A stretch of DNA of 64,000 nt from Trypanosoma brucei (lineage: Eukaryota), in the NCBI GenBank assembly GCA_000002445.1, contig CP000067.1, forward strand, positions 1,056,001 through 1,120,000, written 5' to 3'. The notes beneath the pieces are model-generated. The model saw nothing but the letters and a program-made list of their open reading frames with translations. It did no database searches and was not told the origin of the DNA. This document shows positions 3,789 through 39,184 of the stretch, in pieces. How positions within the stretch are numbered: position 1 is the stretch's first letter; every line of letters starts with the position of its first letter. The translations under genes and the position numbers were made by a program.

Positions 3789-5159
3789 TCATCCCCTGAC
3801 GGTATCCAAAATGGTGGAGCCGGTGCCGAACACAATAAGAAACACACCGCACAGCAGCACCACATAAGTCGTAATGTAATATAAGGGCCCAACTTTCTGC
3901 CATGTGAAGCCCCCTGAGTACATAATCAACAACGCGGGGAAGACGAAACCCAGTGAACCACCACACACAGATCCGGCAATACCAAACACGGTGGTGATCT
4001 TCGGGATGAATATACTCAAAAGCAAAACAAGGAACGACAGTGTAATGACTGACACGCAATGCTTCCAAAAGGGTAGAGAATCCGCAGTCTTCCCAACGAC
4101 GTCATACAATGCATTACGACACGCCATAGCAACTAGGGCATAGGATACGCATAGTTTGATAACGACGCCAATCATACCAACCATTACAGCCGGCTCCTTT
4201 ACGGGGTCGTACATAAGCAAAATAGAACTGGTTGCGGTCTTACCAAAGTCCATGTAACCGAAAAAGGCAGTGATTATGTACATTATACAGCAAAGGGTAT
4301 TGGCAATGATGGCCGCAATAACAAACTTACGTACTGAACGATCCTTCATGTCAATATAAACTTCGTACGCTGTAATCTGCGATATGAATGCGAACATAAA
4401 TACTCCCATTCCCTCAATGGCCTGGAATCCGCTGTTGAATAGGATGATTTCGGCATCTTCGCTCTTGGTCACACTAACATTCTTTATATTCTCCGACAAG
4501 CCATTCATGCACGAGTGCACAACGATCACAATGACAAAATACACCATGAAGGTAACGGCAAAAGTGGAGACGTACCGAAGGGAGTCGATGTGACGCGGAA
4601 TCGTCAGTGGAAGCATAAAACATGCCCAAACCACCGCCATGAGAAGACGATTACCTGATTTTTCCTTCAGGAAGTCCGGCGCATTTGTGCCTTTCAAAAT
4701 GGCAGACAAAATATCTCCCACTGAAATCACGTAGGCAACACAACCACTAAAACCGAGTAGCGCTCGAATACCAGCAAGAACATACGCAGCCCCGCGGCCG
4801 AGAAGTGCGCGAGTTGCCCTCTCGAAGGTGGGGGCTCCTGAGCGGTCGGCTGCGACTGAGAGGTTGTGCATCGTGAAAACCGTTACGGAAGAGATGAAAA
4901 TGAGGTAAAACATTCCCATGATAAGGCCGGTACTGTTGGCCGCCGGAGGCATCCCGAAGATTCCCGCACCGATTGTTGTTGACGCCATGTTAAAAGCACT
5001 GGCCGCAATGCCACCCGGAGGCAAAACAGTGGCGACGCACAAACTCACCTTCGTAAAGAATGTGTTTCGCCCCTTCTTCACGTTATCTTCGGTCTGCACC
5101 GGTTCATTGGAGAGGTTGTTTGGCGTTTGCACTTCTTGTTGTTGCTTGGAGTTGCTCAT
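3789..5159 (-). CDS. Amino acid transporter (AAAP/AAT family), array copy 1. The track ORF runs to 5465; start proposed at the internal ATG (MSNSKQQQ...).
   Basis: Multi-TM protein with motifs typical of trypanosomatid AATs (GGIAASAFNMASTTIGAGIFGMP..., 10-11 hydrophobic segments). The extension from 5160 to 5465 is hydrophobic/low-complexity read-through with no counterpart in the paralog at 13244-14659. 'cat' at 5157-5159 was verified. Confidence 0.75.
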   Translation of the reverse strand: MSNSKQQQEVQTPNNLSNEPVQTEDNVKKGRNTFFTKVSLCVATVLPPGGIAASAFNMASTTIGAGIFGMPPAANSTGLIMGMFYLIFISSVTVFTMHNLSVAADRSGAPTFERATRALLGRGAAYVLAGIRALLGFSGCVAYVISVGDILSAILKGTNAPDFLKEKSGNRLLMAVVWACFMLPLTIPRHIDSLRYVSTFAVTFMVYFVIVIVVHSCMNGLSENIKNVSVTKSEDAEIILFNSGFQAIEGMGVFMFAFISQITAYEVYIDMKDRSVRKFVIAAIIANTLCCIMYIITAFFGYMDFGKTATSSILLMYDPVKEPAVMVGMIGVVIKLCVSYALVAMACRNALYDVVGKTADSLPFWKHCVSVITLSFLVLLLSIFIPKITTVFGIAGSVCGGSLGFVFPALLIMYSGGFTWQKVGPLYYITTYVVLLCGVFLIVFGTGSTILDTVRG

Positions 5160-6459
5160 TGCGTCTTGCAGTCGATTAGCACTTTTAGGGACTTCTTTTA
5201 CCCACAGAGTTTCGGGAACAAAAGGATGAAAGAGAAAGAGCATGAGGAAGTGATGTGCAAGGAAAGTTAGATATGCACAAGTTGGTGCGTACCATGTCTG
5301 AAAGTTTATTGAAGAAGATGCAAGCACACACCTGGAGAGACGCAAATGACGTTCGCCTCCCTTCGTTTTGTGCTTGAGCTGTGCAGCAGTTGCCCCGATG
5401 ATTGTAATGCACACGAGGTGATTTCCATACCAACGTTGAATAGAGTTGTTTGAGGGCAAATTCACTTGCCACTGGAGTTACAAACGCATAAAGTCGTTTC
5501 GGCATGCTAGTGATTGTTTGCTCACGTTTCTTGTCGATTGCGCCACTTCTTCAGTACCATACGACTTCATGCGAGATGAAGAGCGGGGAAGACTTCTGCA
5601 AGACAAAACTTAAAATGTTGCAGTGCTTTGAAGCAGAGTGGACATACACATAACTTTGCTCCTTGATACCACAGCTAGGAACGCAGCGCCCCAAAGTTAT
5701 GAATTACATATGAACTTGATGCACTTGATGGAAGCGGCACCGCGTGAATGCCACTACTGAAAGTGTATGAAAGGAAAGAAAAGACAATAAGAATATTAGG
5801 GGAAAGAACAAAGAAGGGGTTAATGTTTCGCAATTACCATTTAACCTAGTGGTATACCTGAGATAATAAAATCAGCGGTGCACCGAAAGAAACGCTGCAC
5901 AGCCTGAGCACCGAGGGAGGAAGTTGAGGTAAAAAGAAAAAAAAAGAAACCATAAAACAAAAAAGAAACCGAAAGGGACCCTCGAATGGTATCGCAGAAG
6001 CAGCATTTGGAGATGAGTGGACGCATGGAGTCGGCAAACTTGACGGTTTTACCACCGCTTTATTCAACGGCAATGGAGCCACCGCCTCCAGCCGCATCGC
6101 ATAATACGGCCAAATCACTGCAATTCGCACCTCCGCTTGTTGTATTTTCTAATCGGCGGACGTAACGAGGGAAAAACGATGGGACCCCAACGAGATGACA
6201 ACGACAAAAGAAAAAAAAGTAAAATAAAGAAATAAAAAGAAAATTAGCCCTTTCCGAATTTCTCAACGCCCACTCAAAGTTGTGGAGTGTACTGGGCAAA
6301 AATAAAATAAAAGACAAAAAGTAGATAAATACAACAACAAGCACACCAATAAATAGGAGGGAGAGTAAAAGAAATCAGAAAAAAAATTAGGGAAAAACAT
6401 TGAGGAGGAAAATGACGGTGACGGGTGGGGGAATATGAAACAAAGAGAATATATATATA

Positions 6460-6477
6460 TATATATAGGAATGACAC
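6460..6477. repeat. (TA)9 microsatellite in array unit 2
   Basis: Direct count; same flanking sequence as unit 1 ('caaagagaa...ggaatgacacgc'). Confidence 0.9.
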
Positions 6478-7097
6478 GCATATTTTTTTTTTTTCATTTT
6501 CCCTTTTGACACTCCACTCAAATCATTCGCTCTTTTCGTCCCCTCACCCGATCGCCATCATTAACCAAACTTTGATATCGCAGGCTGTGAAATTGCTCAA
6601 GACCGGACAAAACGAGGGAAAATAAAACAAAAAAAATAGAAAGTTGAGAAAGGTGTTGACACCACACATTATATTAAATACAAAAAAAAACAATGAACGA
6701 TGCTCATCACAGTGGTCAGGATACCTGCCAGTGGTGCACGATGGAAAGAAGTCCATGCGAAGGCCTTCCTCTACTTTTTTCCCTCTTTCGAAACGCATTA
6801 TTACTCATTTAAAAGACATTAACAACAATAACAACAACAAAATAATTACAAAGATATTATTTTTTAAAGTTAAAAAGAAACTAGGGTAGGGTAGAGAGGA
6901 AAACGAAACAAAACAAGCATAAGAAAGGTGATAGCATACAGTTGTGACCACTTTACCTTAAATAGAAATTTACTTTCTCTTTATATCTTGTTACACCCAG
7001 GGGCTTAGTGGGAAATAAGCACTTTCTCAGCTCTTGTCAGCGCCTCAAACTTAAGAATTGAGTCCGCCGCATGCTGGCACTTACGTTTAGTTTATGT

Positions 7098-8468
7098 TCA
7101 TCCCCTGACGGTATCCAAAATGGTGGAGCCGGTGCCGAACACAATAAGAAACACACCGCACAGCAGCACCACATAAGTCGTAATGTAATATAAGGGCCCA
7201 ACTTTCTGCCATGTGAAGCCCCCTGAGTACATAATCAACAACGCGGGGAAGACGAAACCCAGTGAACCACCACACACAGATCCGGCAATACCAAACACGG
7301 TGGTGATCTTCGGGATGAATATACTCAAAAGCAAAACAAGGAACGACAGTGTAATGACTGACACGCAATGCTTCCAAAAGGGTAGAGAATCCGCAGTCTT
7401 CCCAACGACGTCATACAATGCATTACGACACGCCATAGCAACTAGGGCATAGGATACGCATAGTTTGATAACGACGCCAATCATACCAACCATTACAGCC
7501 GGCTCCTTTACGGGGTCGTACATAAGCAAAATAGAACTGGTTGCGGTCTTACCAAAGTCCATGTAACCGAAAAAGGCAGTGATTATGTACATTATACAGC
7601 AAAGGGTATTGGCAATGATGGCCGCAATAACAAACTTACGTACTGAACGATCCTTCATGTCAATATAAACTTCGTACGCTGTAATCTGCGATATGAATGC
7701 GAACATAAATACTCCCATTCCCTCAATGGCCTGGAATCCGCTGTTGAATAGGATGATTTCGGCATCTTCGCTCTTGGTCACACTAACATTCTTTATATTC
7801 TCCGACAAGCCATTCATGCACGAGTGCACAACGATCACAATGACAAAATACACCATGAAGGTAACGGCAAAAGTGGAGACGTACCGAAGGGAGTCGATGT
7901 GACGCGGAATCGTCAGTGGAAGCATAAAACATGCCCAAACCACCGCCATGAGAAGACGATTACCTGATTTTTCCTTCAGGAAGTCCGGCGCATTTGTGCC
8001 TTTCAAAATGGCAGACAAAATATCTCCCACTGAAATCACGTAGGCAACACAACCACTAAAACCGAGTAGCGCTCGAATACCAGCAAGAACATACGCAGCC
8101 CCGCGGCCGAGAAGTGCGCGAGTTGCCCTCTCGAAGGTGGGGGCTCCTGAGCGGTCGGCTGCGACTGAGAGGTTGTGCATCGTGAAAACCGTTACGGAAG
8201 AGATGAAAATGAGGTAAAACATTCCCATGATAAGGCCGGTACTGTTGGCCGCCGGAGGCATCCCGAAGATTCCCGCACCGATTGTTGTTGACGCCATGTT
8301 AAAAGCACTGGCCGCAATGCCACCCGGAGGCAAAACAGTGGCGACGCACAAACTCACCTTCGTAAAGAATGTGTTTCGCCCCTTCTTCACGTTATCTTCG
8401 GTCTGCACCGGTTCATTGGAGAGGTTGTTTGGCGTTTGCACTTCTTGTTGTTGCTTGGAGTTGCTCAT
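7098..8468 (-). CDS. Amino acid transporter (AAAP/AAT family), array copy 2, identical at protein level to copy 1
   Basis: Identical 558-aa ORF in the track at 7098-8774. The same internal-start logic applies (8774 minus 306 = 8468). Confidence 0.75.
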   Translation of the reverse strand: MSNSKQQQEVQTPNNLSNEPVQTEDNVKKGRNTFFTKVSLCVATVLPPGGIAASAFNMASTTIGAGIFGMPPAANSTGLIMGMFYLIFISSVTVFTMHNLSVAADRSGAPTFERATRALLGRGAAYVLAGIRALLGFSGCVAYVISVGDILSAILKGTNAPDFLKEKSGNRLLMAVVWACFMLPLTIPRHIDSLRYVSTFAVTFMVYFVIVIVVHSCMNGLSENIKNVSVTKSEDAEIILFNSGFQAIEGMGVFMFAFISQITAYEVYIDMKDRSVRKFVIAAIIANTLCCIMYIITAFFGYMDFGKTATSSILLMYDPVKEPAVMVGMIGVVIKLCVSYALVAMACRNALYDVVGKTADSLPFWKHCVSVITLSFLVLLLSIFIPKITTVFGIAGSVCGGSLGFVFPALLIMYSGGFTWQKVGPLYYITTYVVLLCGVFLIVFGTGSTILDTVRG

Positions 8469-9759
8469 TGCGTCTTGCAGTCGATTAGCACTTTTAGGGA
8501 CTTCTTTTACCCACAGAGTTTCGGGAACAAAAGGATGAAAGAGAAAGAGCATGAGGAAGTGATGTGCAAGGAAAGTTAGATATGCACAAGTTGGTGCGTA
8601 CCATGTCTGAAAGTTTATTGAAGAAGATGCAAGCACACACCTGGAGAGACGCAAATGACGTTCGCCTCCCTTCGTTTTGTGCTTGAGCTGTGCAGCAGTT
8701 GCCCCGATGATTGTAATGCACACGAGGTGATTTCCATACCAACGTTGAATAGAGTTGTTTGAGGGCAAATTCACTTGCCACTGGAGTTACAAACGCATAA
8801 AGTCGTTTCGGCATGCTAGTGATTGTTTGCTCACGTTTCTTGTCGATTGCGCCACTTCTTCAGTACCATACGACTTCATGCGAGATGAAGAGCGGGGAAG
8901 ACTTCTGCAAGACAAAACTTAAAATGTTGCAGTGCTTTGAAGCAGAGTGGACATACACATAACTTTGCTCCTTGATACCACAGCTAGGAACGCAGCGCCC
9001 CAAAGTTATGAATTACATATGAACTTGATGCACTTGATGGAAGCGGCACCGCGTGAATGCCACTACTGAAAGTGTATGAAAGGAAAGAAAAGACAATAAG
9101 AATATTAGGGGAAAGAACAAAGAAGGGGTTAATGTTTCGCAATTACCATTTAACCTAGTGGTATACCTGAGATAATAAAATCAGCGGTGCACCGAAAGAA
9201 ACGCTGCACAGCCTGAGCACCGAGGGAGGAAGTTGAGGTAAAAAGAAAAAAAAAGAAACCATAAAACAAAAAAGAAACCGAAAGGGACCCTCGAATGGTA
9301 TCGCAGAAGCAGCATTTGGAGATGAGTGGACGCATGGAGTCGGCAAACTTGACGGTTTTACCACCGCTTTATTCAACGGCAATGGAGCCACCGCCTCCAG
9401 CCGCATCGCATAATACGGCCAAATCACTGCAATTCGCACCTCCGCTTGTTGTATTTTCTAATCGGCGGACGTAACGAGGGAAAAACGATGGGACCCCAAC
9501 GAGATGACAACGACAAAAGAAAAAAAAGTAAAATAAAGAAATAAAAAGAAAATTAGCCCTTTCCGAATTTCTCAACGCCCACTCAAAGTTGTGGAGTGTA
9601 CTGGGCAAAAATAAAATAAAAGACAAAAAGTAGATAAATACAACAACAAGCACACCAATAAATAGGAGGGAGAGTAAAAGAAATCAGAAAAAAAATTAGG
9701 GAAAAACATTGAGGAGGAAAATGACGGTGACGGGTGGGGGAATATGAAACAAAGAGAAT

Positions 9760-9783
9760 ATATATATATATATATATATATAG
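9760..9783. repeat. (TA)12 microsatellite in array unit 3
   Basis: Direct count; same flanks as units 1 and 2. Confidence 0.9.
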
Positions 9784-10411
9784 GAATGACACGCATATTT
9801 TTTTTTTTTCATTTTCCCTTTTGACACTCCACTCAAATCATTCGCTCTTTTCGTCCCCTCACCCGATCGCCATCATTAACCAAACTTTGATATCGCAGGC
9901 TGTGAAATTGCTCAAGACCGGACAAAACGAGGGAAAATAAAACAAAAAAAATAGAAAGTTGAGAAAGGTGTTGACACCACACATTATATTAAATACAAAA
10001 AAAACAATGAACGATGCTCATCACAGTGGTCAGGATACCTGCCAGTGGTGCACGATGGAAAGAAGTCCATGCGAAGGCCTTCCTCTACTTTTTTCCCTCT
10101 TTCGAAACGCATTATTACTCATTTAAAAGACATTAACAACAATAACAACAACAAAATAATTACAAAGATATTATTTTTTAAAGTTAAAAAGAAACTAGGG
10201 TAGGGTAGAGAGGAAAACGAAACAAAACAAGCATAAGAAAGGTGATAGCATACAGTTGTGACCACTTTACCTTAAATAGAAATTTACTTTCTCTTTATAT
10301 CTTGTTACACCCAGGGGCTTAGTGGGAAATAAGCACTTTCTCAGCTCTTGTCAGCGCCTCAAACTTAAGAATTGAGTCCGCCGCATGCTGGCACTTACGT
10401 TTAGTTTATGT

Positions 10412-11782
10412 TCATCCCCTGACGGTATCCAAAATGGTGGAGCCGGTGCCGAACACAATAAGAAACACACCGCACAGCAGCACCACATAAGTCGTAATGT
10501 AATATAAGGGCCCAACTTTCTGCCATGTGAAGCCCCCTGAGTACATAATCAACAACGCGGGGAAGACGAAACCCAGTGAACCACCACACACAGATCCGGC
10601 AATACCAAACACGGTGGTGATCTTCGGGATGAATATACTCAAAAGCAAAACAAGGAACGACAGTGTAATGACTGACACGCAATGCTTCCAAAAGGGTAGA
10701 GAATCCGCAGTCTTCCCAACGACGTCATACAATGCATTACGACACGCCATAGCAACTAGGGCATAGGATACGCATAGTTTGATAACGACGCCAATCATAC
10801 CAACCATTACAGCCGGCTCCTTTACGGGGTCGTACATAAGCAAAATAGAACTGGTTGCGGTCTTACCAAAGTCCATGTAACCGAAAAAGGCAGTGATTAT
10901 GTACATTATACAGCAAAGGGTATTGGCAATGATGGCCGCAATAACAAACTTACGTACTGAACGATCCTTCATGTCAATATAAACTTCGTACGCTGTAATC
11001 TGCGATATGAATGCGAACATAAATACTCCCATTCCCTCAATGGCCTGGAATCCGCTGTTGAATAGGATGATTTCGGCATCTTCGCTCTTGGTCACACTAA
11101 CATTCTTTATATTCTCCGACAAGCCATTCATGCACGAGTGCACAACGATCACAATGACAAAATACACCATGAAGGTAACGGCAAAAGTGGAGACGTACCG
11201 AAGGGAGTCGATGTGACGCGGAATCGTCAGTGGAAGCATAAAACATGCCCAAACCACCGCCATGAGAAGACGATTACCTGATTTTTCCTTCAGGAAGTCC
11301 GGCGCATTTGTGCCTTTCAAAATGGCAGACAAAATATCTCCCACTGAAATCACGTAGGCAACACAACCACTAAAACCGAGTAGCGCTCGAATACCAGCAA
11401 GAACATACGCAGCCCCGCGGCCGAGAAGTGCGCGAGTTGCCCTCTCGAAGGTGGGGGCTCCTGAGCGGTCGGCTGCGACTGAGAGGTTGTGCATCGTGAA
11501 AACCGTTACGGAAGAGATGAAAATGAGGTAAAACATTCCCATGATAAGGCCGGTACTGTTGGCCACCGGAGGCATCCCGAAGATTCCCGCACCGATTGTT
11601 GTTGACGCCATGTTAAAAGCACTGGCCGCAATGCCACCCGGAGGCAAAACAGTGGCGACGCACAAACTCACCTTCGTAAAGAATGTGTTTCGCCCCTTCT
11701 TCACGTTATCTTCGGTCTGCACCGGTTCATTGGAGAGGTTGTTTGGCGTTTGCACTTCTTGTTGTTGCTTGGAGTTGCTCAT
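10412..11782 (-). CDS. Amino acid transporter (AAAP/AAT family), array copy 3, with a single A-to-V substitution
   Basis: The ORF at 10412-12088 differs from copies 1 and 2 only at GMPPVANSTG versus GMPPAANSTG. This is a g-to-a change at ~11565 on the plus strand ('ggccaccgg' versus 'ggccgccgg'). Confidence 0.75.
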   Translation of the reverse strand: MSNSKQQQEVQTPNNLSNEPVQTEDNVKKGRNTFFTKVSLCVATVLPPGGIAASAFNMASTTIGAGIFGMPPVANSTGLIMGMFYLIFISSVTVFTMHNLSVAADRSGAPTFERATRALLGRGAAYVLAGIRALLGFSGCVAYVISVGDILSAILKGTNAPDFLKEKSGNRLLMAVVWACFMLPLTIPRHIDSLRYVSTFAVTFMVYFVIVIVVHSCMNGLSENIKNVSVTKSEDAEIILFNSGFQAIEGMGVFMFAFISQITAYEVYIDMKDRSVRKFVIAAIIANTLCCIMYIITAFFGYMDFGKTATSSILLMYDPVKEPAVMVGMIGVVIKLCVSYALVAMACRNALYDVVGKTADSLPFWKHCVSVITLSFLVLLLSIFIPKITTVFGIAGSVCGGSLGFVFPALLIMYSGGFTWQKVGPLYYITTYVVLLCGVFLIVFGTGSTILDTVRG

Positions 11783-13243
11783 TGCGTCTTGCAGTCGATT
11801 AGCACTTTTAGGGACTTCTTTTACCCACAGAGTTTCGGGAACAAAAGGATGAAAGAGAAAGAGCATGAGGAAGTGATGTGCAAGGAAAGTTAGATATGCA
11901 CAAGTTGGTGCGTACCATGTCTGAAAGTTTATTGAAGAAGATGCAAGCACACACCTGGAGAGACGCAAATGACGTTCGCCTCCCTTCGTTTTGTGCTTGA
12001 GCTGTGCAGCAGTTGCCCCGATGATTGTAATGCACACGAGGTGATTTCCATACCAACGTTGAATAGAGTTGTTTGAGGGCAAATTCACTTGCCACTGGAG
12101 TTACAAACGCATAAAGTCGTTTCGGCATGCTAGTGATTGTTTGCTCACGTTTCTTGTCGATTGCGCCACTTCTTCAGTACCATACGACTTCATGCGAGAT
12201 GAAGAGCGGGGAAGACTTCTGCAAGACAAAACTTAAAATGTTGCAGTGCTTTGAAGCAGAGTGGACATACACATAACTTTGCTCCTTGATACCACAGCTA
12301 GGAACGCAGCGCCCCAAAGTTATGAATTACATATGAACTTGATGCACTTGATGGAAGCGGCACCGCGTGAATGCCACTACTGAAAGTGTATGAAAGGAAA
12401 GAAAAGACAATAAGAATATTAGGGGAAAGAACAAAGAAGGGGTTAATGTTTCGCAATTACCATTTAACCTAGTGGTATACCTGAGATAATAAAATCAGCG
12501 GTGCACCGAAAGAAATGCTGCACAGCCTGAGCACCGAGGGAGGAAGTTGAGGTAAAAAGAAAAAAAAAGAAACCATAAAACAAAAAAGAAACCGAAAGGG
12601 ACCCTCGAATGGTATCGCAGAAGCAGCATTTGGAGATGAGTGGACGCATGGAGTCGGCAAACTTGACGGTTTTACCACCGCTTTATTCAACGGCAATGGA
12701 GCCACCGCCTCCAGCCGCATCGCATAATACGGCCAAATCACTGCAATTCGCACCTCCGCTTGTTGTATTTTCTAATCGGCGGACGTAACGAGGGAAAAAC
12801 GATGGGACCCCAACGAGATGACAACGACAAAAGAAAAAAAAGAAAACAAAAGAATTTGAGCAGGAATTTTTTTGGGAAAAAGAGATGAAATTTGCTTCAC
12901 ATGTTGTAAAGATCAAGTACTTTAATCGTTCCACAATGCAGTGGCGAAGTAAAAGATGAAAGAAGACCTACCACCAAACCAATGAAAAAAGAACCGAAAG
13001 TGGTCCGCTCATTCGCTACCACTGCGGCAGCAAAAAAAGAGGGAAAATGAGTGGAATGCGAAAGGGTGGAGACAACTGTTGCCGAAAGAGTGAAGACACG
13101 TTGGTGGCGGTTAACTATCCTCCGCTGCGTTCAATGGTAATAGGCAGATAAGTAACAAAACATCTGATTTATTTATTTACTTATTTACTGACTCTCCTCC
13201 TTTACCTCCTTTTTTTCTTCAATAGGAACTTCAAAGCCGCCGG

Positions 13244-14659
13244 TTAACCAGTTATAGTGCCCCATATACTTGCACCCGTGCCGAAAACAATGCCTACAAC
13301 ACCACAAATTAGTAAAACATATGTCGCAAGATAATGTAAAGACCCAACTTTCTGCCATGTGAAGCCCCCTGAGTACATAATCAACAACGCGGGGAAGACG
13401 AAACCCAGTGAACCACCGGTAATCGAGCCAGAAAAACCAAGGACGGTATTAACATTGGGAATGAATAGACCCAAAAGCAGTGCAGCAGTGGACAGCACGA
13501 TGACTGACACGCAATGCTTCCAAAAGGGTAGAGAATCCACATTCTTCTCTGCAATGCTGTACAATGCATTACGACACGCCATAGCGAGCAGCGCATACGA
13601 AGCAACCAGCTTTACAAGCACGCCAATCATACCAACCATTACAGCCGGCTCCTTTACGGGGTCGTACATAAGCAAAATAGAACCGGAAACAGCACGACCA
13701 AAGTCCATGTAACCGAAAAAGGCAGTGATTATGTACAGCGCAGTACACAGGGACATGGCAATGATGGCCGCAATAACAAACTTACGTACTGAACGATCCT
13801 TCATGTCAATATAAACTTCATACGCCGTGTCCTGACAAGTGTAGGAAAACATAAATACTCCCAACCCTTCAATGGCTTCATTCCCGCTATTAAAGAGAAT
13901 GATGGCAGCTGTATCACTCTTTCCAACACTAACATTCTTTATATTCTCCGACAAGCCATTCATGCACGAGTGCACAACGATCACAATGACAAAATACACC
14001 ATGAAGGTAACGGCAAAAGTGGAGACGTACCGAAGGGAGTCGACGTGACGCGGGATCGCCAGTGGAAGCATAAAACATGCCCAAACCACCGCCGTGAGAA
14101 GACGATTACCTGATTTTTCCTTCAGGAAGTCCGGCGCATTTGTGCCTTTCAAAATGGCAGACAAAATATCTCCCACTGAAATTACGTAGGCAACACAACT
14201 CGTAAAACCATCAAGCGCTCGAAGAACAGCAATGGCATAAGCAACTCTACGACCCATGAGGACAAATGTTACGCTTTCATATGTGGGTGCTTTGGAGCGG
14301 TCCGCTGCGAGGGCGAGATTACGCATGGAATAGATAGTCATGCAACTAATAAAAAAGAGGTAAAACATTCCCATGATAAGTCCACTGCTGCCGGCCGATG
14401 ACGGCAAGCCAAAGATGCCAGCGCCCAGCGTTGTCGCTGCGATGTTGAAGGCACTGGCGATTGTACCTCCGGGAGGGATGAATGCAGCAAATTGTGTGCT
14501 CTGCTCACCAGGAGGTTGCTTCCCTGATTGGGGTTCGTTTGATTGAACATTTTGACTGGTTTCACAGTTTCCAACGTTATTATTGACAACGGTGTGACCG
14601 ATCGGCTCGAAACAATTGTGAGGTACGGTGTTGCTTGTATTTTCTCTGGCAATACACAT
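13244..14659 (-). CDS. Amino acid transporter (AAAP/AAT family), a divergent mosaic paralog immediately downstream of the array
   Basis: 471-aa ORF. The central region is identical or near-identical to the array copies (for example FAVTFMVYFVIVIVVHSCMNGLSENIKNVSV and YEVYIDMKDRSVRKFVIAAIIA). The N-terminal 60 aa and the C-terminal 70 aa have diverged. Confidence 0.8.
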   Translation of the reverse strand: MCIARENTSNTVPHNCFEPIGHTVVNNNVGNCETSQNVQSNEPQSGKQPPGEQSTQFAAFIPPGGTIASAFNIAATTLGAGIFGLPSSAGSSGLIMGMFYLFFISCMTIYSMRNLALAADRSKAPTYESVTFVLMGRRVAYAIAVLRALDGFTSCVAYVISVGDILSAILKGTNAPDFLKEKSGNRLLTAVVWACFMLPLAIPRHVDSLRYVSTFAVTFMVYFVIVIVVHSCMNGLSENIKNVSVGKSDTAAIILFNSGNEAIEGLGVFMFSYTCQDTAYEVYIDMKDRSVRKFVIAAIIAMSLCTALYIITAFFGYMDFGRAVSGSILLMYDPVKEPAVMVGMIGVLVKLVASYALLAMACRNALYSIAEKNVDSLPFWKHCVSVIVLSTAALLLGLFIPNVNTVLGFSGSITGGSLGFVFPALLIMYSGGFTWQKVGSLHYLATYVLLICGVVGIVFGTGASIWGTITG

Positions 14660-15095: not shown

Positions 15096-16661
15096 TTACC
15101 GAAAGGCGACAATACAAATGTTTTCTCCTGTTACACTCGACTCGGCGTACTGACAAAGATAGGTCCGCCGGAATCCACTTTGTTTTAAGTATTCAAGCCG
15201 GAAAGCGTCAATTACTCTTTTACAACACATACCTGTGAGGCGTCGCTCAGCATCCACAGCTTCTCCACTCACTGCCCAAGAAGACATGGAAGTTATTGCG
15301 GCGAACTCTCTCTCACTAAACGTATGGTTGGTACCAGGAATCGCGATTCGGCCCCTGCGACACTCGCTCGGGGATAACAAGGCATTTATATGCTTCAATT
15401 CACAGCGTTGGTGACAGCATGTAGCGAAGACAACGGCACACACAGAGGCAAACCCTTCCGTGTTAAGATTAGGTGCTGTAACGCACGAGAGAGCAAAGTC
15501 TGTGCATGCTCCACAAAGGTGTTTGCCGACGGCCACCCACTGTTCTTCCACCGACACTGACTGCTTGATGGCGTTTGTGCATTGATCGGATGTACTGCTT
15601 GTTTCCTCTCTGGACCGTTTACATGTGGACGCACCACATAGTGCTTTTGCCAAATCAAGGTCCTTTATATTGATGCGCAATCGAACGAGCGGAAGGCGAC
15701 TGTTTCGAACACACGCATCGGCTTTGCGCCGGAAGTTATCCATATCTACAACTACAATACGCGGAAAGCCTCCATTGTCAGCACTAAGGGCCTCATTCAC
15801 GGCTGTCCGCCCTTCCTTTCTCTCCTGAAATCCGGGATGACTATGACAATACCGGATAGACCCTGAAAGCAAAGCATCCTGCAACGAAACAGCGAGACCA
15901 GCTTTGCCTGCACCTAATTCAAGGAAACCGGCTATTCTAACATATGTGTTTCCAAGATTCCCCCGCCCCTCGGCGTAACCGCGGATGACCGTCTGCACGC
16001 AACGAAGCAAAGCCCTGTGCTGCGGCCCATGTTTGTTGGAAATTCGTCGCGTTGACCCTGTGCTGCTGTTATCTTGAAAGGGCTCCTGACATTCCTCCGC
16101 AAGAAGGACAATCCGTGGCTGGATAACATTAAAGTAGCACTCCCTTACGCGTGTGATGAGGTCCTCCAAAACCACCGTGTCCATATGATGATGTGTGAAG
16201 CGTTCCTTTTCCGATTCCTGGGAAGTGACACAGTAGGCCACGCCTTTGCACGCATGTAGGTCCTTGCTATAGTATGGGAGCTTGTCAACAACAAAGCGTA
16301 GATCAGGACATACCTTTACGTGCTTTTGCAATTTATCGGCATAAACAGTGTGGTTTGGGTTGATGGGACACGGGACCCGCTGGAGGGCGCGTGAAGGTCC
16401 CGTAGAAACGCCCTCACCAGCAGTTCTCCCCGGGCCAACGGCTGAGCCCGAGCTGCTCAAAACGACAGCAGGTGTTGTTTCCCCCGTTGTGGTGCCGTTC
16501 ACATCGTGAGTGGGACAATAGCGCCCACCGGCTCGTTTGGCCGTGCGACAGAACCGGCGCTTGTGCGAGAGGTAAAAATCGCATGCCACAGCGTCAGGGT
16601 TATGAGTGGGGCGCATTTGTCCCTTTCCGGTCCCTTCGCCTTCCTGAGTTGTGGCATCCAT
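15096..16661 (-). CDS. TRM13-like tRNA 2'-O-methyltransferase (CCCH plus CHHC zinc fingers plus methyltransferase domain)
   Basis: N-terminal CDFYLSHKRRFCRTAKRAGGRYCPTHD fits a TRM13-type CCCH finger. CPINPNHTVYADKLQKHVKVC fits a U11-48K/CHHC finger. Downstream LELGAGKAGL fits SAM-binding motif I. The architecture matches the TRM13 family. Confidence 0.6.
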   Translation of the reverse strand: MDATTQEGEGTGKGQMRPTHNPDAVACDFYLSHKRRFCRTAKRAGGRYCPTHDVNGTTTGETTPAVVLSSSGSAVGPGRTAGEGVSTGPSRALQRVPCPINPNHTVYADKLQKHVKVCPDLRFVVDKLPYYSKDLHACKGVAYCVTSQESEKERFTHHHMDTVVLEDLITRVRECYFNVIQPRIVLLAEECQEPFQDNSSTGSTRRISNKHGPQHRALLRCVQTVIRGYAEGRGNLGNTYVRIAGFLELGAGKAGLAVSLQDALLSGSIRYCHSHPGFQERKEGRTAVNEALSADNGGFPRIVVVDMDNFRRKADACVRNSRLPLVRLRINIKDLDLAKALCGASTCKRSREETSSTSDQCTNAIKQSVSVEEQWVAVGKHLCGACTDFALSCVTAPNLNTEGFASVCAVVFATCCHQRCELKHINALLSPSECRRGRIAIPGTNHTFSEREFAAITSMSSWAVSGEAVDAERRLTGMCCKRVIDAFRLEYLKQSGFRRTYLCQYAESSVTGENICIVAFR

Positions 16662-17889
16662 TTAATCAATACCTATGGTCAAATGCCGGTAAATGCAACT
16701 ACTTTAAGGCCAGTGTCTAACCAAATAACCGTCGCGGTATCCAGCACTTCACACACGCAATTCACAGGGCACCCCTGCCACCTGCTCGGACGATATACAT
16801 GTAAGAAAAAAAAGAAGGGCAGAGGCGACAGCAGAAAGAAAATGTGTAGGCGCACAAAAAAGTTTAAATAAAATGCTGAGTGGAGTGAAGAAGCGCAGCT
16901 ACAACGTAATGGAAAGAGACATATTTAGAAGTACGCGAGACACTTTTTTTTTCTTCCCTCTTTGTTTCTCAAGGTGGAATGAATGTAAAATACATATTCA
17001 CGCTACCATCGGGTTCATATGTTTATATATATTATTTTGAAAAGTATATGTATATATATATATATACATATATGATGCACCGGAATGCACCCTACGCGGT
17101 TGGCGCAGTAAAATTGCGAATACATGTCTTTCCTGTCTTCGTATCGTTAGAGTTCTCCCAGAAAAAAAAATGCGGTGGAGGTAATTTCTTGTGTTTCTAC
17201 TGCAATTAATAAACATAATCGAAAGAAAATATACATTGAAAAGAAAAAAAAAGGGCCTCATATAACAAGAAAAAAATTGGTTCTTGTGATAAAGGATGTG
17301 AAAGTAAGGGTGAGGGGGTTTGTTAGAAAAAAATCTGTAGTAAAAGAACAACAGCAGTCAAAACACCGACCGCATGTATGATTTCGCAACAAATAGTCGT
17401 GATGATCACTGATGACTTTTACCATCGGGCAGTGCCCGCAGAAGCACCAAAAGTAAGAACAAAAACATAAAACAAACAAACGAGCAAGCAATAAGATTGA
17501 CAAACAGCAGCAGCATTGACCTCATACAAGAAAAACAATTTCTGGGGACTAAACACAATATGAAGAAGGAGGAAGAAGAAAATCCAAACCGCGGTGCGGC
17601 TTTGAAAGAGGGTCAAATAGTGAGAAAACAAACAGACAAAACAAACAAATACCATCGACATAAACTGAAGTGAGCCCCCTTTGCCCGCTAATATAAAGCC
17701 CTTCGACACTAAAGGCGTGACACATCACTACCGGCACGACCATAACAATGAAAACATATACGGCCAATGATGTTTTGTTTTTCTTTTGTCATGGTTTCTC
17801 TCGTACAACTACGTAAGCACCCCATTCTTGGCAAAGACAAAGAGAAGGAAACAAAAAAAGAAGGAAAGGAAAAACAAAAAAGGCGTGCC

Positions 17890-32378: not shown

Positions 32379-33917
32379 TCACGTAGGGGGTTCCACATCT
32401 GCCTGTGCCATGAGTTGTTGATCAGTGACAATAAAACACAAACCGATGTCTTTTCGAATGCCAGCAGCATTTGTCAGTAAGGTAACACTTCCTGCTGTCA
32501 CTGACTCAACTAACGCGAAGCCCATCAACAACCCACGCTTCAGTCGGGACTCAAATACGGCGAATGGAATGCGCTGCAGTGTGCCATCCGGTAGCTCCTC
32601 TTGCTCAGTCGCTGTGCTCAACGCCAGCACACGATTTTTGATGTCAACATCTTGTGGGTGCACGTACGTTAGCGCTACGTCCGCTTGTCCGGAAACTGTG
32701 GGATCTTGATGGTCTGAATCATCGTCTATCATGGGCATGAAAGTGGAAGTTCCACTTGTGTCACCTCTTCCAATTGTCACAAGACGAATGAGAGAAGCAT
32801 CCACTGTAAAGAGTGTGGGCTTCACTGCCATTGTGCGGCTGCCGAAGAAATATTGTAACCAGCACTGGCGGTTAAAAAATGCATCGTCCGGCACCGCCCC
32901 GCATTCAGTGGAATCCAATAGAAAAAGCTGTACCTTCAGCCCGTTACTGCACGTTATGGTAGATGGAGTTATTTGGGGGATTTCCGATTGTGCACCGCTC
33001 TCTTGATGCAGCCGCTGTGCTATCTTAAACCGTAACCAGGAGCTGCCAACAACAAAAACGTGATCGATACCTGCGGCAAGTATTGTACTCACAAGCACAT
33101 CTAGTGGGTTTACTTTGGGACGTCCTTCCGGTTTCTCCTCGGCGCATTCCCAAGCCTCCGCATCCTCCACCACTGCGCGACTGATAGTTCCATAGTCGAC
33201 GAAAATCCCGCCCACACGGCACCGGTCACTTCGTGCCATACGCTCTGTACTCAAGCGCATCATTTGACGTAAGATGTGCAAAAAGAGGGCCGGGTCCTCA
33301 TGTTTTTTTGTCCCTTGATGGGAGTGTAAGCCAGGGACAAATGCCATCTCGTTTTCGATGTCTATAGTATACTGCATCGCGTACAGAGAGACTACTCCAG
33401 GGTAACCAAACCGTGGGGCCTCCACCGAGGCATCTAGAAGCAGAGGGTGGTAGCCCAAACGGACAGCGTAGTTGATCAAAGTACGGACGTACGTGCTTGT
33501 GCCAACAGCGCGGCGCTCAGCCACGAAGAGTACATGTGGCCCTATCCCGTCTGCGCCGGTTCGTCGCGCCTTCACACGCTGCACCTCCAAGTGAGTATGA
33601 ATGTCTGCAACTGAGCGTGCCCGTGTAGCATTGCATGTCGTTCCGTAACATATCTGGTGAACAGCGGAGGATGCTGTAAGCACCAATCGGCAGCCTGTAG
33701 GGGAGAAGACAGCGAGAGAACGAGCCACCGGGAGATGGACAACTACGCCTGTCGATAACTCCGTCCCGAATATCTCGGCACGCGGTTCCTCGCCGCCATC
33801 TTCCACTTGAGCAAGAAGCGTAACGGTTGCAGCGCCGCCGCTGCTTGCGGTCGCTAAGCACAGCTCGCCCATCGGTGGTAGCGCATATTCTCGCTCCAGC
33901 AGAGCCGTGTTTGCCAT
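32379..33917 (-). CDS. Clp1/Grc3-family protein (pre-mRNA cleavage factor polynucleotide-kinase-like) with a degenerate Walker A
   Basis: 'GPHVLFVAERRAVGTSTYVRTLINYAVRLGYHPLLLDASVEAPRFGYPGVVSLYA' aligns with the human CLP1 central domain '[54 protein letters not shown]'. The P-loop Lys is replaced (GKST becomes GTST). Confidence 0.5.
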   Translation of the reverse strand: MANTALLEREYALPPMGELCLATASSGGAATVTLLAQVEDGGEEPRAEIFGTELSTGVVVHLPVARSLAVFSPTGCRLVLTASSAVHQICYGTTCNATRARSVADIHTHLEVQRVKARRTGADGIGPHVLFVAERRAVGTSTYVRTLINYAVRLGYHPLLLDASVEAPRFGYPGVVSLYAMQYTIDIENEMAFVPGLHSHQGTKKHEDPALFLHILRQMMRLSTERMARSDRCRVGGIFVDYGTISRAVVEDAEAWECAEEKPEGRPKVNPLDVLVSTILAAGIDHVFVVGSSWLRFKIAQRLHQESGAQSEIPQITPSTITCSNGLKVQLFLLDSTECGAVPDDAFFNRQCWLQYFFGSRTMAVKPTLFTVDASLIRLVTIGRGDTSGTSTFMPMIDDDSDHQDPTVSGQADVALTYVHPQDVDIKNRVLALSTATEQEELPDGTLQRIPFAVFESRLKRGLLMGFALVESVTAGSVTLLTNAAGIRKDIGLCFIVTDQQLMAQADVEPPT

Positions 33918-34112: not shown

Positions 34113-34511
34113 CTATACCCAACTGCTATACCCCGTTGGCAACGGCGGGGCTGGGGCTTCAGGAAGGGGCACAATCTGCTCCTCCACTTGTCCATGTGCA
34201 TTCACAACACCACGTCGTAGGAGTCCGGACTCATGCAGGACCCGAGTGACGGCCAAAAGAATGGAAGGTTCCTTCTTCAGCATGGCCTTGATGTCATGGT
34301 GGGCTGTTGGGTCATCAATCTGCCGCCGTAATTCTTTGATGATGCTGTAAATCTCCTCTGTAGCTAAGCCGTATACATCGGCTGGTGGTGTTGGGGGCGG
34401 AAGAGGAGGCATCGGCATGTCTGACACGTTTGAAGATGCGCGACTGTGTGGTGACTCATCACCTTCAGCCTTATTGTAGTCATCATTATTCTCTTCCTCT
34501 TCGAAGTACAT
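34113..34511 (-). CDS. Small hypothetical protein (132 aa) with acidic N-terminus and Pro-rich segments
   Basis: Isolated ORF in a 1.4 kb gap between flanking genes, same strand as the unit. It has no recognisable domain and could be spurious. Confidence 0.3.
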   Translation of the reverse strand: MYFEEEENNDDYNKAEGDESPHSRASSNVSDMPMPPLPPPTPPADVYGLATEEIYSIIKELRRQIDDPTAHHDIKAMLKKEPSILLAVTRVLHESGLLRRGVVNAHGQVEEQIVPLPEAPAPPLPTGYSSWV

Positions 34512-35294: not shown

Positions 35295-37865
35295 CTACTC
35301 AATTACAAGACGGCTGGCCAGCAAGGTTTGCACATGGTGGCGAACTTCATCACCATGCTGTTGTGCCAACTGCAGCAAACGACCCAACGCACTGTTGAAC
35401 ATGTCGCGCTTCTCCTGGAGTTCGACATCAGCCAAAACCTCCGGTGGCACGTTGGCGCTTGCCTTCTGTATGGTCTGGGTGTAGCGAATAACTGTCTCCC
35501 GGGCTTGCATAATCCCTTCATGTACCTGCTCGCATGCCTTCTGCAGGTTTTCCATGGTAGCTCGCACCCGCTCTCTTTTCTCTATGATCTGACGGAGGTC
35601 TTGCTCCTTGCTTTCCATTACCTGCTGGTAATCATTCAGCTCCATCACGCGTCGACTCACAGCTGCCTTTAAGTCTCGTTGCTGTTGTTGGAGTGCTATG
35701 CGCATTTTTACCATGTCGTGACTCTCCGGCACGGGATCAAACATGTGACGGTAGTTCGAATTGCTCGCGCGAATGACACTTAGCGTCCGTTTCAACTTAT
35801 CCATCTCCCGTTCCATTCGGCTCACGCGGACATCTAAGGTGTCACCACGCAATTGCAAATCCTCCCGCTCGCGCGCTGCCTCCATAACAACTTGCGCTGG
35901 GGTCCAATTCACCTTCTCAGGATCAAGACGCACGAGCTGAACGTCGTAACGGTTCCGAAGACCGGCCAGTGACTTTTGCCTCTCTCGCAAATCTGATGCA
36001 AGACGCCGCCGCTGCTCCTCTACGAGTTTAGCCTCCATCTTCATCATATCATGATGCACGGCAATCTCAGAAAGCCGCTCCGCGATGTCACATGTTAACT
36101 GTCGTTTGCGCTCGGCGAGACTACCGAGCTCACCGTTCCGCTGATGCAATGTGCGCTTCAGATCCTGTAATTGCAGCTCTTGAGTGTCAACAAGCACCAA
36201 CTTCTCTTCGTGTTGTTTGCGAAGCTTTGTCAGTTCGGCAGTGCAGCTGTCGCAACCTAGAGTAAGCTGCAACAACTTCTCCGCTGCAATTTTTTTCTCC
36301 GAAGTGACCCGTTCCAACTCGACATTGGCGTGCCACGTTTCTTCGCGCACACGCTTAACCTGAATCTCCATTGCGCGCTGCTGTTTCATTAAGTCGGCTA
36401 ATGTATTCTGCAAAGTTGCTATTTTTTCTTGCAGCTTGTTGCGCTCATCCAAGGACCGCTCACCCTTGGCGCGGTTAACTTTCCGCTGCATCTGCTGAAC
36501 GGAAAACTCTACAGCGTAAAGCAGCTGCTGCTGCGCAAAGTACTGGCCGTCGAGTTGCCCGATTTTGGTCCTCAGATTCTGAGCTTGCAGTTGCCCACCA
36601 CTTATCTCCGCGAGAAGATCTGATTGTTCCCGGCGCACTTCTTTGAGCCTCTCACTCATCGTAAAATTTTCTTTCTTCAACATTTCAGTCTCCTTATCCA
36701 TCTGCTTTTCAGCATCCTGCGCCTCCTTGAAGAGCCTGCCTATCGTGGCCAACTGCGTCGAAAGATCCGCTCCCTTACTGTACACGCTACTCTTCTGTTC
36801 TTTCAAGTCATCCCTTTTAGCCGTGAGACGTTCGTGAGCTGCTGTTTTGTCGCGCACTGCCACCTTTGACTGCTCCAAACGGATACGGGCGTTGTTGCGC
36901 TCCTTTATGGAGCGTCCAAGTTCCTCTCGTATTGTTTCCACCTCATTCTCCAATCCAGTGACATGCGTTTCCAGTGATGATCGGGTTTGGCGGCTCTTCT
37001 CCGCACGGTGCTCGCGCTCCTCAATGCCCGCTTGCATGAGTGCCTCCTCCGCACGCGCAGCGTCGTAGTCATCGTGCAACTTTTTCAGTGCTACGCGCCG
37101 CTGCTCAATCCATTCAGCCCCTTCCGCGTACTGCTGGGCTGCTGCTCGGATGGAATTGTCACGCTCGCGGATCTCCTTCACAACGCGCTCCCACTCATCG
37201 ATTAAGTCACCGCGCTCTTTGTGTTGGCGCCGGTAGTCTGTCGCCACGCGGTTGAGTTCCAACTGCACACTGCGCATAACTGCGACCTCATCCTGAAGTT
37301 GTCTTCGTCGCTCGCGCAACTGCGCCTCATGCCGCTCAACTGCAATGTCGAGTTGGCGTAACTTTACCGCATCATCTTTCGCATACCGCGCAACAGCCGC
37401 TTCATCCGACTCCTTTTGTTGGCGTGCCGCGTCCCACTGCTCAAGCGCCTCCTGATTGTACGCCATAGAACTCTTCAGCTCCGCCATGCGGAGATTCTCC
37501 GTGAATAAGCGGTCCTGCACGACCTGCAGCCTCTCTTGCACATCTGCCTGCTCCGCCTGCATTTGCATCTGACTCTGCTTGAGCCTACCGCACTCACGAA
37601 GAAGGAGCCGGTACATGTGCGACTCGGACTCCATTTCGCGCCTTTTACTGTCAGCTAGGGCTTGCGTATTTACAATTTCGCCACGCACATTGGCCAGGTG
37701 TTCTTTCACGAACTCCAGACGGCGCCGCTGGTCTTGAATTTCGCGAACATGTCCGTCGTGTATTTCTTCATGGCGTGAGAGTTGCGCGGTAAGTTCCTTG
37801 TTAACCGCGTTCAGCAACTCCAGCGGCAGTGCTTCAGCCGTGGCATCCACGACCTCTAGACTCAT
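35295..37865 (-). CDS. Long coiled-coil protein (~856 aa). The track ORF to 38171 includes a non-coding-looking 102-codon extension; start proposed at ATG 37865 (MSLEVVDATAE...).
   Basis: Near-continuous heptad-rich, E/R/Q/L-rich sequence. The upstream extension (FISLKLRTIVVVFPPPLP...) is hydrophobic and low-complexity. 'cat' at 37863-37865 was verified. Confidence 0.6.
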   Translation of the reverse strand: MSLEVVDATAEALPLELLNAVNKELTAQLSRHEEIHDGHVREIQDQRRRLEFVKEHLANVRGEIVNTQALADSKRREMESESHMYRLLLRECGRLKQSQMQMQAEQADVQERLQVVQDRLFTENLRMAELKSSMAYNQEALEQWDAARQQKESDEAAVARYAKDDAVKLRQLDIAVERHEAQLRERRRQLQDEVAVMRSVQLELNRVATDYRRQHKERGDLIDEWERVVKEIRERDNSIRAAAQQYAEGAEWIEQRRVALKKLHDDYDAARAEEALMQAGIEEREHRAEKSRQTRSSLETHVTGLENEVETIREELGRSIKERNNARIRLEQSKVAVRDKTAAHERLTAKRDDLKEQKSSVYSKGADLSTQLATIGRLFKEAQDAEKQMDKETEMLKKENFTMSERLKEVRREQSDLLAEISGGQLQAQNLRTKIGQLDGQYFAQQQLLYAVEFSVQQMQRKVNRAKGERSLDERNKLQEKIATLQNTLADLMKQQRAMEIQVKRVREETWHANVELERVTSEKKIAAEKLLQLTLGCDSCTAELTKLRKQHEEKLVLVDTQELQLQDLKRTLHQRNGELGSLAERKRQLTCDIAERLSEIAVHHDMMKMEAKLVEEQRRRLASDLRERQKSLAGLRNRYDVQLVRLDPEKVNWTPAQVVMEAAREREDLQLRGDTLDVRVSRMEREMDKLKRTLSVIRASNSNYRHMFDPVPESHDMVKMRIALQQQQRDLKAAVSRRVMELNDYQQVMESKEQDLRQIIEKRERVRATMENLQKACEQVHEGIMQARETVIRYTQTIQKASANVPPEVLADVELQEKRDMFNSALGRLLQLAQQHGDEVRHHVQTLLASRLVIE

Positions 37866-39184
37866 ATATATATGTATATATAAGTTGTGTCCTCTGGCGG
37901 AAAAGGAATGTTGCAAGGACGAAAAACAAGTTTGTGAATTGTTTGAGAAACCAGCGATAGAAGTGAAGACAATGGGGCTAAATTCAGAAAAGAGTGATGC
38001 GGAGCGATGATCGCCGCCGCACCTCACACGAGAGAGCGCAAAGACGGGGAATATGTGTGCATCCAGGAATTTGTTCATGACGATAGTGAAGAGTCGGCGC
38101 GCGTGTGGTCCATTGGGAAGAGGAGGGGGAAAAACAACAACAATGGTGCGTAGTTTCAAAGAGATGAACAAAACGGCAATTGGATACCGGCCGCTCAGGT
38201 GAATCGTTGAAGTTTCTTTATCCCTCTTTATGCATGTATATGTGTGTCACCACATGATAGGCCGGGAAGGAGTGCAAAATGTGCAGTTCTTAACAAAACA
38301 TGTATGATTTCCAATCACCAGTTGGTCGTAATGCAGAAAGTACACTGAAGGTACAACTCCCCTTCAACAGCCAGACGAGGAGGTGTGTGGCAACTCAAAA
38401 CCCCTGCGCCAGTGAAAAAAAACACGAGAAAATACTCACCAGAGTTCCGTTCGTTGCACGTTTACCCCTGCGACAGAATAACAGTACCTTCACGTGGCAC
38501 ACGTAACGCACAGCTCGGCGAAACATGCCCGCGCAAATCAGCGAAAAAAAAAGGACAAGGTTAATCGCAGATACACCGAAAAAGAAACTAAGGATTACAG
38601 TGGGAAAAGAAAGGGACATGATCCGCTGTTGTTTTCTGCATTATTTTGGTATCCTTCACATAGGCCATTCGCCCTGTTCCAATTAGCACTCGTACCTCTC
38701 CCTCCCCCACAGTCGCTGATGCCAAACCAAATTCGACACCAACCCAAACAGGTCCGAAATAAATGCGCGGGAAGACATACCAACGCAGGGAATTGCCAAG
38801 GAAGAATGTTAAAAATAAGATGTGATAGGAGGACGGTTTGGGTCCCGGCACCTTCAACAGCAACTCAAATACATAACGTGTGGAGCCAAAACACCACTAC
38901 TGAATGGGGAGTTGCAGTCAGCACAGAAGTAGCGTAACACTTTTTTTTCTTGTTCGTATTTTCTTTGTGTCTTCATTGAAATCGTTGCTGCCGAAGACCG
39001 GACGCCATCGCCAGGGGACACAACACACACCAACTCACTCTCAACCGTGCAGCCTTACTCTCTCCGCCTAGCAGTGCACTTGAGTAATAATACACTGTGT
39101 AGACGTCTTGCCGGAGCGGAAAAAATAAAAACGAAGAGGGGGATAAAATGAGCATGTAAACAAACAAATGATACGCTGAGATTG

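Follow-up and report, generated by a model that had tools for sequence, protein, structure and literature searches.

Human CLP1 and C. elegans Clp1 (PDB 8hmy_E and 4ohv) are active RNA 5′-kinases that carry a GxxxxGK[ST] P-loop, the Walker B residue D151, a TxGW clasp and an RxxxxR lid, the four motifs for Clp1 catalysis defined by Dikfidan et al. 2014, as cited in PMC10598085. Saccharomyces cerevisiae Clp1, a subunit of cleavage factor IA (CF IA; PDB 2npi, 4oi4, 4c0b), keeps the Walker A G-K-T and binds ATP. Grc3 and NOL9, kinases of pre-rRNA internal transcribed spacer 2 (ITS2) processing, belong to the same P-loop kinase superfamily. Here we analyze another member of this superfamily, Tb-Clp1-t3 (t3) of Trypanosoma brucei, which is encoded in a 64,000-nucleotide stretch of contig CP000067.1 (positions 1,056,001 to 1,120,000 of the forward strand; hereafter, the window). 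By alignment t3 has none of the four motifs, and its predicted structure appears to keep the complete three-domain Clp1 fold.

The identity of t3, its place in the Clp1 family and its absent kinase activity are already known from Saito et al. 2023 (J Mol Evol 91:669; PMC10598085). They assigned XP_844561.1 (512 amino acids (aa), chromosome 4) to the Clp1 group as a euglenozoan type 3 carrying CLP1_N and CLP1_P. The t3 sequence in their Supplementary Table S6 is recognizably the window protein, despite optical character recognition (OCR) noise. The same study lists three other T. brucei genes:

Tb-Clp1-t1 (t1): XP_843821, 441 aa, chromosome 3
Tb-Clp1-t2 (t2): XP_845487, 423 aa, chromosome 6
Tb-Nol9/Grc3: XP_846962, 1034 aa, chromosome 8

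The supplement's OCR sequences of t1 and t2 were too corrupted for motifs and served only to retrieve clean database entries (P0202 for t1, 441 aa; P0203 for t2, 423 aa, named "pre-mRNA cleavage complex II Clp1-like"). Both proteins share the CLP1_N and CLP1_P architecture of t3. The t2 protein differs from t3 in that its four motifs are intact and it is an active polynucleotide kinase (PNK) in vitro (PMC10598085); it is the chromosome 6 gene Tb927.6.3690, given as T. brucei CLP1 in an older comparative paper. The t1 protein is inactive like t3 and was proposed as a yeast-like 3′-end factor (PMC10598085). Its loop, GQNDTEKH, is unlike that of t3: the Lys is kept, and the second Gly and the Ser/Thr are lost. 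A 2026 study (Nat Microbiol, PMC13056571) uses the name "CLP1" for Tb927.11.9760, a component of cleavage/polyadenylation that is enriched close to the VSG expression site. This chromosome 11 gene is not among the four Clp1-family genes (chromosomes 3, 6, 4 and 8) of PMC10598085; it might be a fifth gene of Clp1 type, or the identifiers may disagree.

A first-pass annotation, made from the window sequence alone, had considered that t3 might be the sole Clp1, in which case the 3′-end processing or tRNA-splicing machinery would use a non-catalytic one. That scenario is refuted, because T. brucei also has t1, the active t2 and Nol9/Grc3.

The gene is intact in the window:

32379..33917, minus strand: complete open reading frame (ORF) of t3, 512 aa plus stop, ATG start (ORF call and database match)

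Database comparison shows 100% identity of its product to XP_844561.1/Q57Y15 of T. brucei brucei TREU927, which is labeled "hypothetical protein, conserved". The ORF lies within a run of 22 large ORFs, all on the minus strand, the arrangement of a trypanosomatid polycistron. The orthologue in T. b. gambiense is identical at 511/512 positions, with the GTST loop unchanged, and the Walker A Lys column is Thr or Ala in all Trypanosoma orthologues examined. For these reasons GTST is not a sequencing error, and the change from GKST to GTST reported in the first pass is genuine.

Two Pfam models place the protein in the Clp1 family. CLP1_P (PF16575) matches with 55.4 bits (E 9e-15) and CLP1_N (PF16573) with 37.3 bits (E 3e-9, residues 46-117), against cut-offs of 26.6 and 22.3 bits; each also matches 26/26 t3 orthologues. 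With phmmer against PDB sequences, t3 matches human CLP1 (8hmy_E, E 1.2e-11) and C. elegans Clp1 (4ohv, E 1e-9). The alignment to human CLP1 places the t3 segment AERRAVGTSTYVRTLINYAVRLGYHP over the P-loop and the NYAVRLG block, the block on which the family assignment had originally been based, and that resemblance is real. The likeness to Clp1 is far beyond chance, and t3 is nearer to Clp1 than to Grc3/Nol9. Three domains can be assigned:

33567..33917, minus strand: N-terminal beta-sandwich domain, about residues 1-117, Pfam CLP1_N (PF16573 match at residues 46-117; strands at 7-82 in the model)
32832..33548, minus strand: central P-loop (former polynucleotide kinase) domain, about residues 124-362, CLP1_P (Pfam, alignment and model)
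32382..32831, minus strand: C-terminal domain, residues 363-512, with a predicted, diverged Clp1 C-terminal fold and a disordered insertion at 387-410

The protein is about 90 aa longer than human or C. elegans Clp1 because of this insertion and a variable acidic one at about 246-270 inside the central domain.

The catalytic motifs were compared in an alignment of human CLP1 (reference sequence identical to PDB chain 8hmy_E residues 21-445), t1, t2, 29 kinetoplastid t3 orthologues and 15 more distant t3-type proteins. Human CLP1 and t2 have the Walker A Lys, the Walker B Asp, the TxGW clasp and lid residues R288 and R293. The corresponding segments of t3 are, by alignment:

33492..33521, minus strand: degenerate Walker A loop A133-E-R-R-A-V-G-T-S-T142, opposite human G121-P-T-D-V-G-K-S-T129
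33498..33500, minus strand: codon ACA for Thr140, at the Walker A Lys position (human K127)
33426..33443, minus strand: Walker B region L159-L-L-D-A-S164
33183..33203, minus strand: clasp-equivalent segment F239-V-D-Y-G-T-I245
32859..32900, minus strand: lid-equivalent segment, residues 340-353

In the P-loop, the first Gly is replaced, there is one extra residue, and the Lys has become Thr140. Among the 29 kinetoplastid orthologues the Lys column contains T12 A8 L5 V2 S1 K1, a distribution that points to an unconstrained position. An alternative conserved Lys was not found at residues 133-143 across 26 orthologues. The Walker B Asp (human D151) corresponds to Ser164 in T. brucei, and its column holds V13 A9 S4 N1 T1 E1, with Asp in 0/29. 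There is an invariant Asp in t3, Asp162, and it aligns with human E149, not D151; this register is supported by the spacing between the "RLG" and "PG" anchors, which is equal and ungapped in t3 and human CLP1. The segment FVDYGTI aligns with human INTCGW and lacks the Trp. Kinetoplastid t3 proteins have an invariant F-x-D-[YF]-G here, and TxGW is absent from all 29 of them and from the 15 distant proteins. The lid arginines are also absent from T. brucei t3 (a gap and an Asp), and a conserved R350-Q351-x-W353 follows. Across the 29 orthologues R288 is a gap in 29/29 and R293 is Arg in 0/29.

All four catalytic motifs are thus lost and the key positions drift, a pattern typical of a site that has ceased to serve phosphoryl transfer. 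This agrees with the published assay, in which recombinant t3 showed no PNK activity and t2, the positive control, did (PMC10598085); the original call of a pseudo-kinase holds, with the loss extending to four motifs. That assay used partially purified E. coli protein, a 20-nt single-stranded RNA and one condition, so it may have missed a kinase or phosphotransferase with a non-canonical site, another substrate or a need for a partner. Such an enzyme would also account for the region around the former active site being the best-conserved part of t3. We consider it very unlikely, given the joint absence of the four PNK motifs, the variability of the key positions with no single substitute residue, and an intact active paralogue, t2, in the same genome. 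That t3 is a dead kinase is close to certain in our judgment.

The P-loop still shows constraint. Among 26 orthologues G139 and S141 never vary and T142 and Y143 hardly do; position 134 is Asp or Glu in 26/26, R135 is found in 22/26 and Arg or His at 136 in 24/26. One explanation is that t3 binds ATP or GTP without catalysis, through the P-loop backbone amides, Ser141/Thr142, Arg135 and Arg/His136, and uses the nucleotide structurally as yeast Clp1 does. Yeast Clp1 offers a precedent, as it is an inactive kinase that binds ATP (PDB 2npi, "Clp1-ATP-Pcf11 complex", and 4oi4). However, yeast Clp1 keeps G-K-T. In t3, by comparison, the first P-loop Gly, the Lys and the Walker B Asp are missing, so Walker A is not intact. 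The Lys column is Leu, Val or Ala in many species, the Mg2+-positioning Walker B Asp is V, A or S in 26/29 (N, T and E once each), and the already lengthened loop is further degenerate in Angomonas deanei (SGETGHY). We regard nucleotide sensing by t3 as unlikely. Loss of nucleotide binding, which the first pass had raised, is plausible because the loss of the Lys is accompanied by that of the Walker B Asp, clasp and lid.

Loss of motifs might instead reflect relaxed selection on a redundant copy that is decaying. T. brucei has three Clp1-group paralogues, and the catalytic positions of t3 drift freely. However, the ORF is intact and full-length in 26/26 aligned orthologues (Trypanosoma, Leishmania, Leptomonas, Porcisia, Novymonas and further relatives). 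These have 70 invariant columns, and identity to T. brucei t3 is 64-65% within Trypanosoma and 41-49% for the others. The structural model is also confidently folded, and the microsynteny with the gene upstream is kept in a distant relative. The conservation effectively refutes decay, which we find hardly credible: t3 is functional and under purifying selection.

Five t3 orthologues, from T. theileri, T. rangeli, T. conorhini, T. grayi and T. vivax (P0002, P0004, P0005, P0007 and P0030), bear the NCBI/UniRef name "mucin-associated surface protein (MASP)". They carry CLP1_N and CLP1_P and have no resemblance to MASP, so this name is a propagated misannotation and these entries could be re-annotated.

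The Clp1 C-terminal model (PF06807) scores 12.2 bits on T. brucei t3, below its cut-off of 27.9 bits, and gives sub-threshold matches at the expected position in 14/26 orthologues (best E 2.6e-5). An AlphaFold2 model of t3 has mean pLDDT 81.2 and pTM 0.74, with low confidence confined to the C-terminal tail and to loops 95-98, 186-192 and 387-410. C. elegans Clp1 is matched over its whole length, C-terminal domain included, when the model is superposed on it, and Foldseek agrees with a Clp1 fold (TM 0.83, target-normalised). From this model, t3 is predicted to keep all three Clp1 domains, the last being a diverged Clp1 C-terminal domain plus an inserted disordered loop. Saito et al. reported that this domain is "replaced" by a unique Clp1_euC3 domain (PMC10598085); the statement holds for what can be detected in sequence and, according to the model, fails for the fold.

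Relatives that keep the Lys indicate the direction of change. Searching 1.84 billion representative proteins with a profile built from the 26 orthologues gave 27 matches at E <= 1e-30, most covering nearly the whole profile. Ordinary Clp1s rank below a clear gap, matching profile positions of about 44-250 only, with E of about 1e-27 or weaker. More distant full-length t3-type matches are environmental (P0037-P0051, plus P0185, P0190 and P0191, from ENA, JGI, Logan and one NCBI assembly). The 15 aligned keep G-K-[ST] in 15/15 cases, the Walker B Asp in 12/15 and the lid arginines in most, and TxGW in 0/15. Their contigs contain tightly packed intronless genes on a single strand, and from gene layout and microsynteny they look like kinetoplastid-type genomes. 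One of the distant proteins is located in assembly GCA_005801925.1. On the contig of another, P0044 (L002; ENA ERZ1292633, groundwater), a 541-aa protein with AKAP7_NLS (PF10469) is encoded at 15641-17266, four called genes downstream of the t3-type gene and on the same strand. We take AKAP7_NLS to belong to the 2H-phosphoesterase/RNA-ligase-like group; its presence in the polycistron is probably coincidental.

In neighbor-joining (NJ) trees (100 bootstrap replicates, two distance measures), the kinetoplastid t3 group, including all named trypanosomatids, is monophyletic in 100% of bootstraps. Because all 15 distant relatives keep GK[ST], the Lys loss in t3 would be derived, and on the simplest reading the catalytic apparatus was lost on the stem of the kinetoplastid t3 group; NJ is crude for sequences this divergent, and long-branch effects are possible. 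Saito et al. stated that "no protein phylogenetically close to Tb-Clp1-t3 was found" (PMC10598085), which is probably a limit of RefSeq sampling; about 15 distant, full-length t3-type proteins with intact GK[ST] turn up in environmental assemblies.

A single close orthologue, P0028, has the Lys ("SGKSHY"), with Glu at the Walker B position and neither lid nor clasp. We considered it as a basal intermediate and rejected this, as it is sister to Angomonas deanei in 98-99% of NJ bootstraps and falls inside the named trypanosomatids in 100%. The Lys of P0028 more plausibly arose by chance in what looks like a free column, where a single base change (ACA to AAA) would supply it. The P0028 contig shares with the window one amino-acid-transporter homologue; as this is a large multicopy family, the synteny is weak.

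In 100% of NJ bootstraps the t1 protein joins the t3-type clade, as opposed to canonical Clp1 (human, t2 and environmental Clp1s). One duplication might have produced both t1 and t3, but this is a hint from a fragile placement, with a single long-branched t1 sequence in the tree. The distant proteins have a D-x-P-T segment in place of TxGW and may be active kinases or NTPases that grip the RNA end differently. We tentatively propose, at somewhat less than an even chance, that there is a third Clp1 subfamily, wide and so far unrecognised, and that t3 is its dead-end branch. The free-living members would keep Walker A, Walker B and the lid, with D-x-P-T replacing TxGW, and the trypanosomatids would have lost catalysis on one stem branch while retaining the protein.

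Taken as a whole, the reading that we favor is that t3 is a dead Clp1 paralogue with a non-catalytic role, and we hold it to be probable. It is a kinetoplastid-specific paralogue of the RNA 5′-kinase Clp1, is predicted to keep the fold, and has lost every catalytic motif. Most likely it no longer binds ATP productively. It may serve a nuclear RNA-processing assembly as a non-catalytic subunit, either scaffold or adaptor, and this specific role is a finely balanced call. In this it would resemble the inert yeast Clp1 that bridges Pcf11 in CF IA, but with a P-loop that is repurposed and not nucleotide-loaded. Several points weigh against this. We infer both the scaffold role and the loss of ATP binding, and some ligand or partner may still occupy the site, because G139, S141, D/E134, R135 and R/H136 are conserved. 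Searches returned no TriTrypDB gene ID for t3, the searchable literature yielded no localisation, interaction, knock-down or fitness data for it, and a CPSF73 pull-down paper does not name it in its main text among the co-purifying proteins.

The neighbors of t3 in the window include a tandem array of amino-acid transporters (Pfam Aa_trans), at 3789-14659 on the minus strand:

3789-5465, 7098-8774 and 10412-12088, minus strand: three 558-aa Aa_trans copies (Pfam)
13244-14659, minus strand: diverged fourth Aa_trans copy, 471 aa (83% DNA identity over a sampled 300-nt stretch)

The repeat period is about 3.31 kb, and sampled 300-nt stretches of the unit are 100% identical. A 521-aa ORF (15096-16661, minus strand) has a TRM13 tRNA 2′-O-methyltransferase domain with CCCH and CHHC zinc fingers. 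The t3 polycistron thus contains a further gene for RNA modification, with no sign that it works together with t3. A 958-aa coiled-coil ORF (35295-38171, minus strand), two genes upstream of t3, encodes a homologue of CCDC39 (PF24161, E 4e-75), the axonemal 96-nm ruler protein. Immediately upstream of t3 is a 132-aa ORF (34113-34511, minus strand) with no Pfam match. It has a homologue (45% over 88 aa) at 9228-9665 of contig L005, in the same position beside the t3 orthologue of a distant kinetoplastid-like genome. The Lys-less relative P0034 keeps this T. brucei microsynteny of t3 and the upstream 132-aa gene, and the gene pair is conserved over that distance.

These results refine the 2023 literature and leave its picture unchanged, with little significance beyond annotation. 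We add that the whole active site is lost and not the Lys alone, that the dead state seems derived, with relatives that retain the Lys, and that the Clp1 C-terminal fold is predicted to be retained. On the Lys-retaining relatives and the diverged C-terminal domain, published statements would need correction. Because t2 is intact and active, nothing here implies an unusual "kinase-less" RNA-processing pathway in T. brucei. If the third subfamily is real, t3 would represent a dated conversion of an enzyme to a pseudoenzyme, in which a Lys-less charged P-loop (D/E-R-R/H-x-x-G-x-S-T) gained a new binding function. Across trypanosomatid parasites the protein is conserved; the host lacks it.
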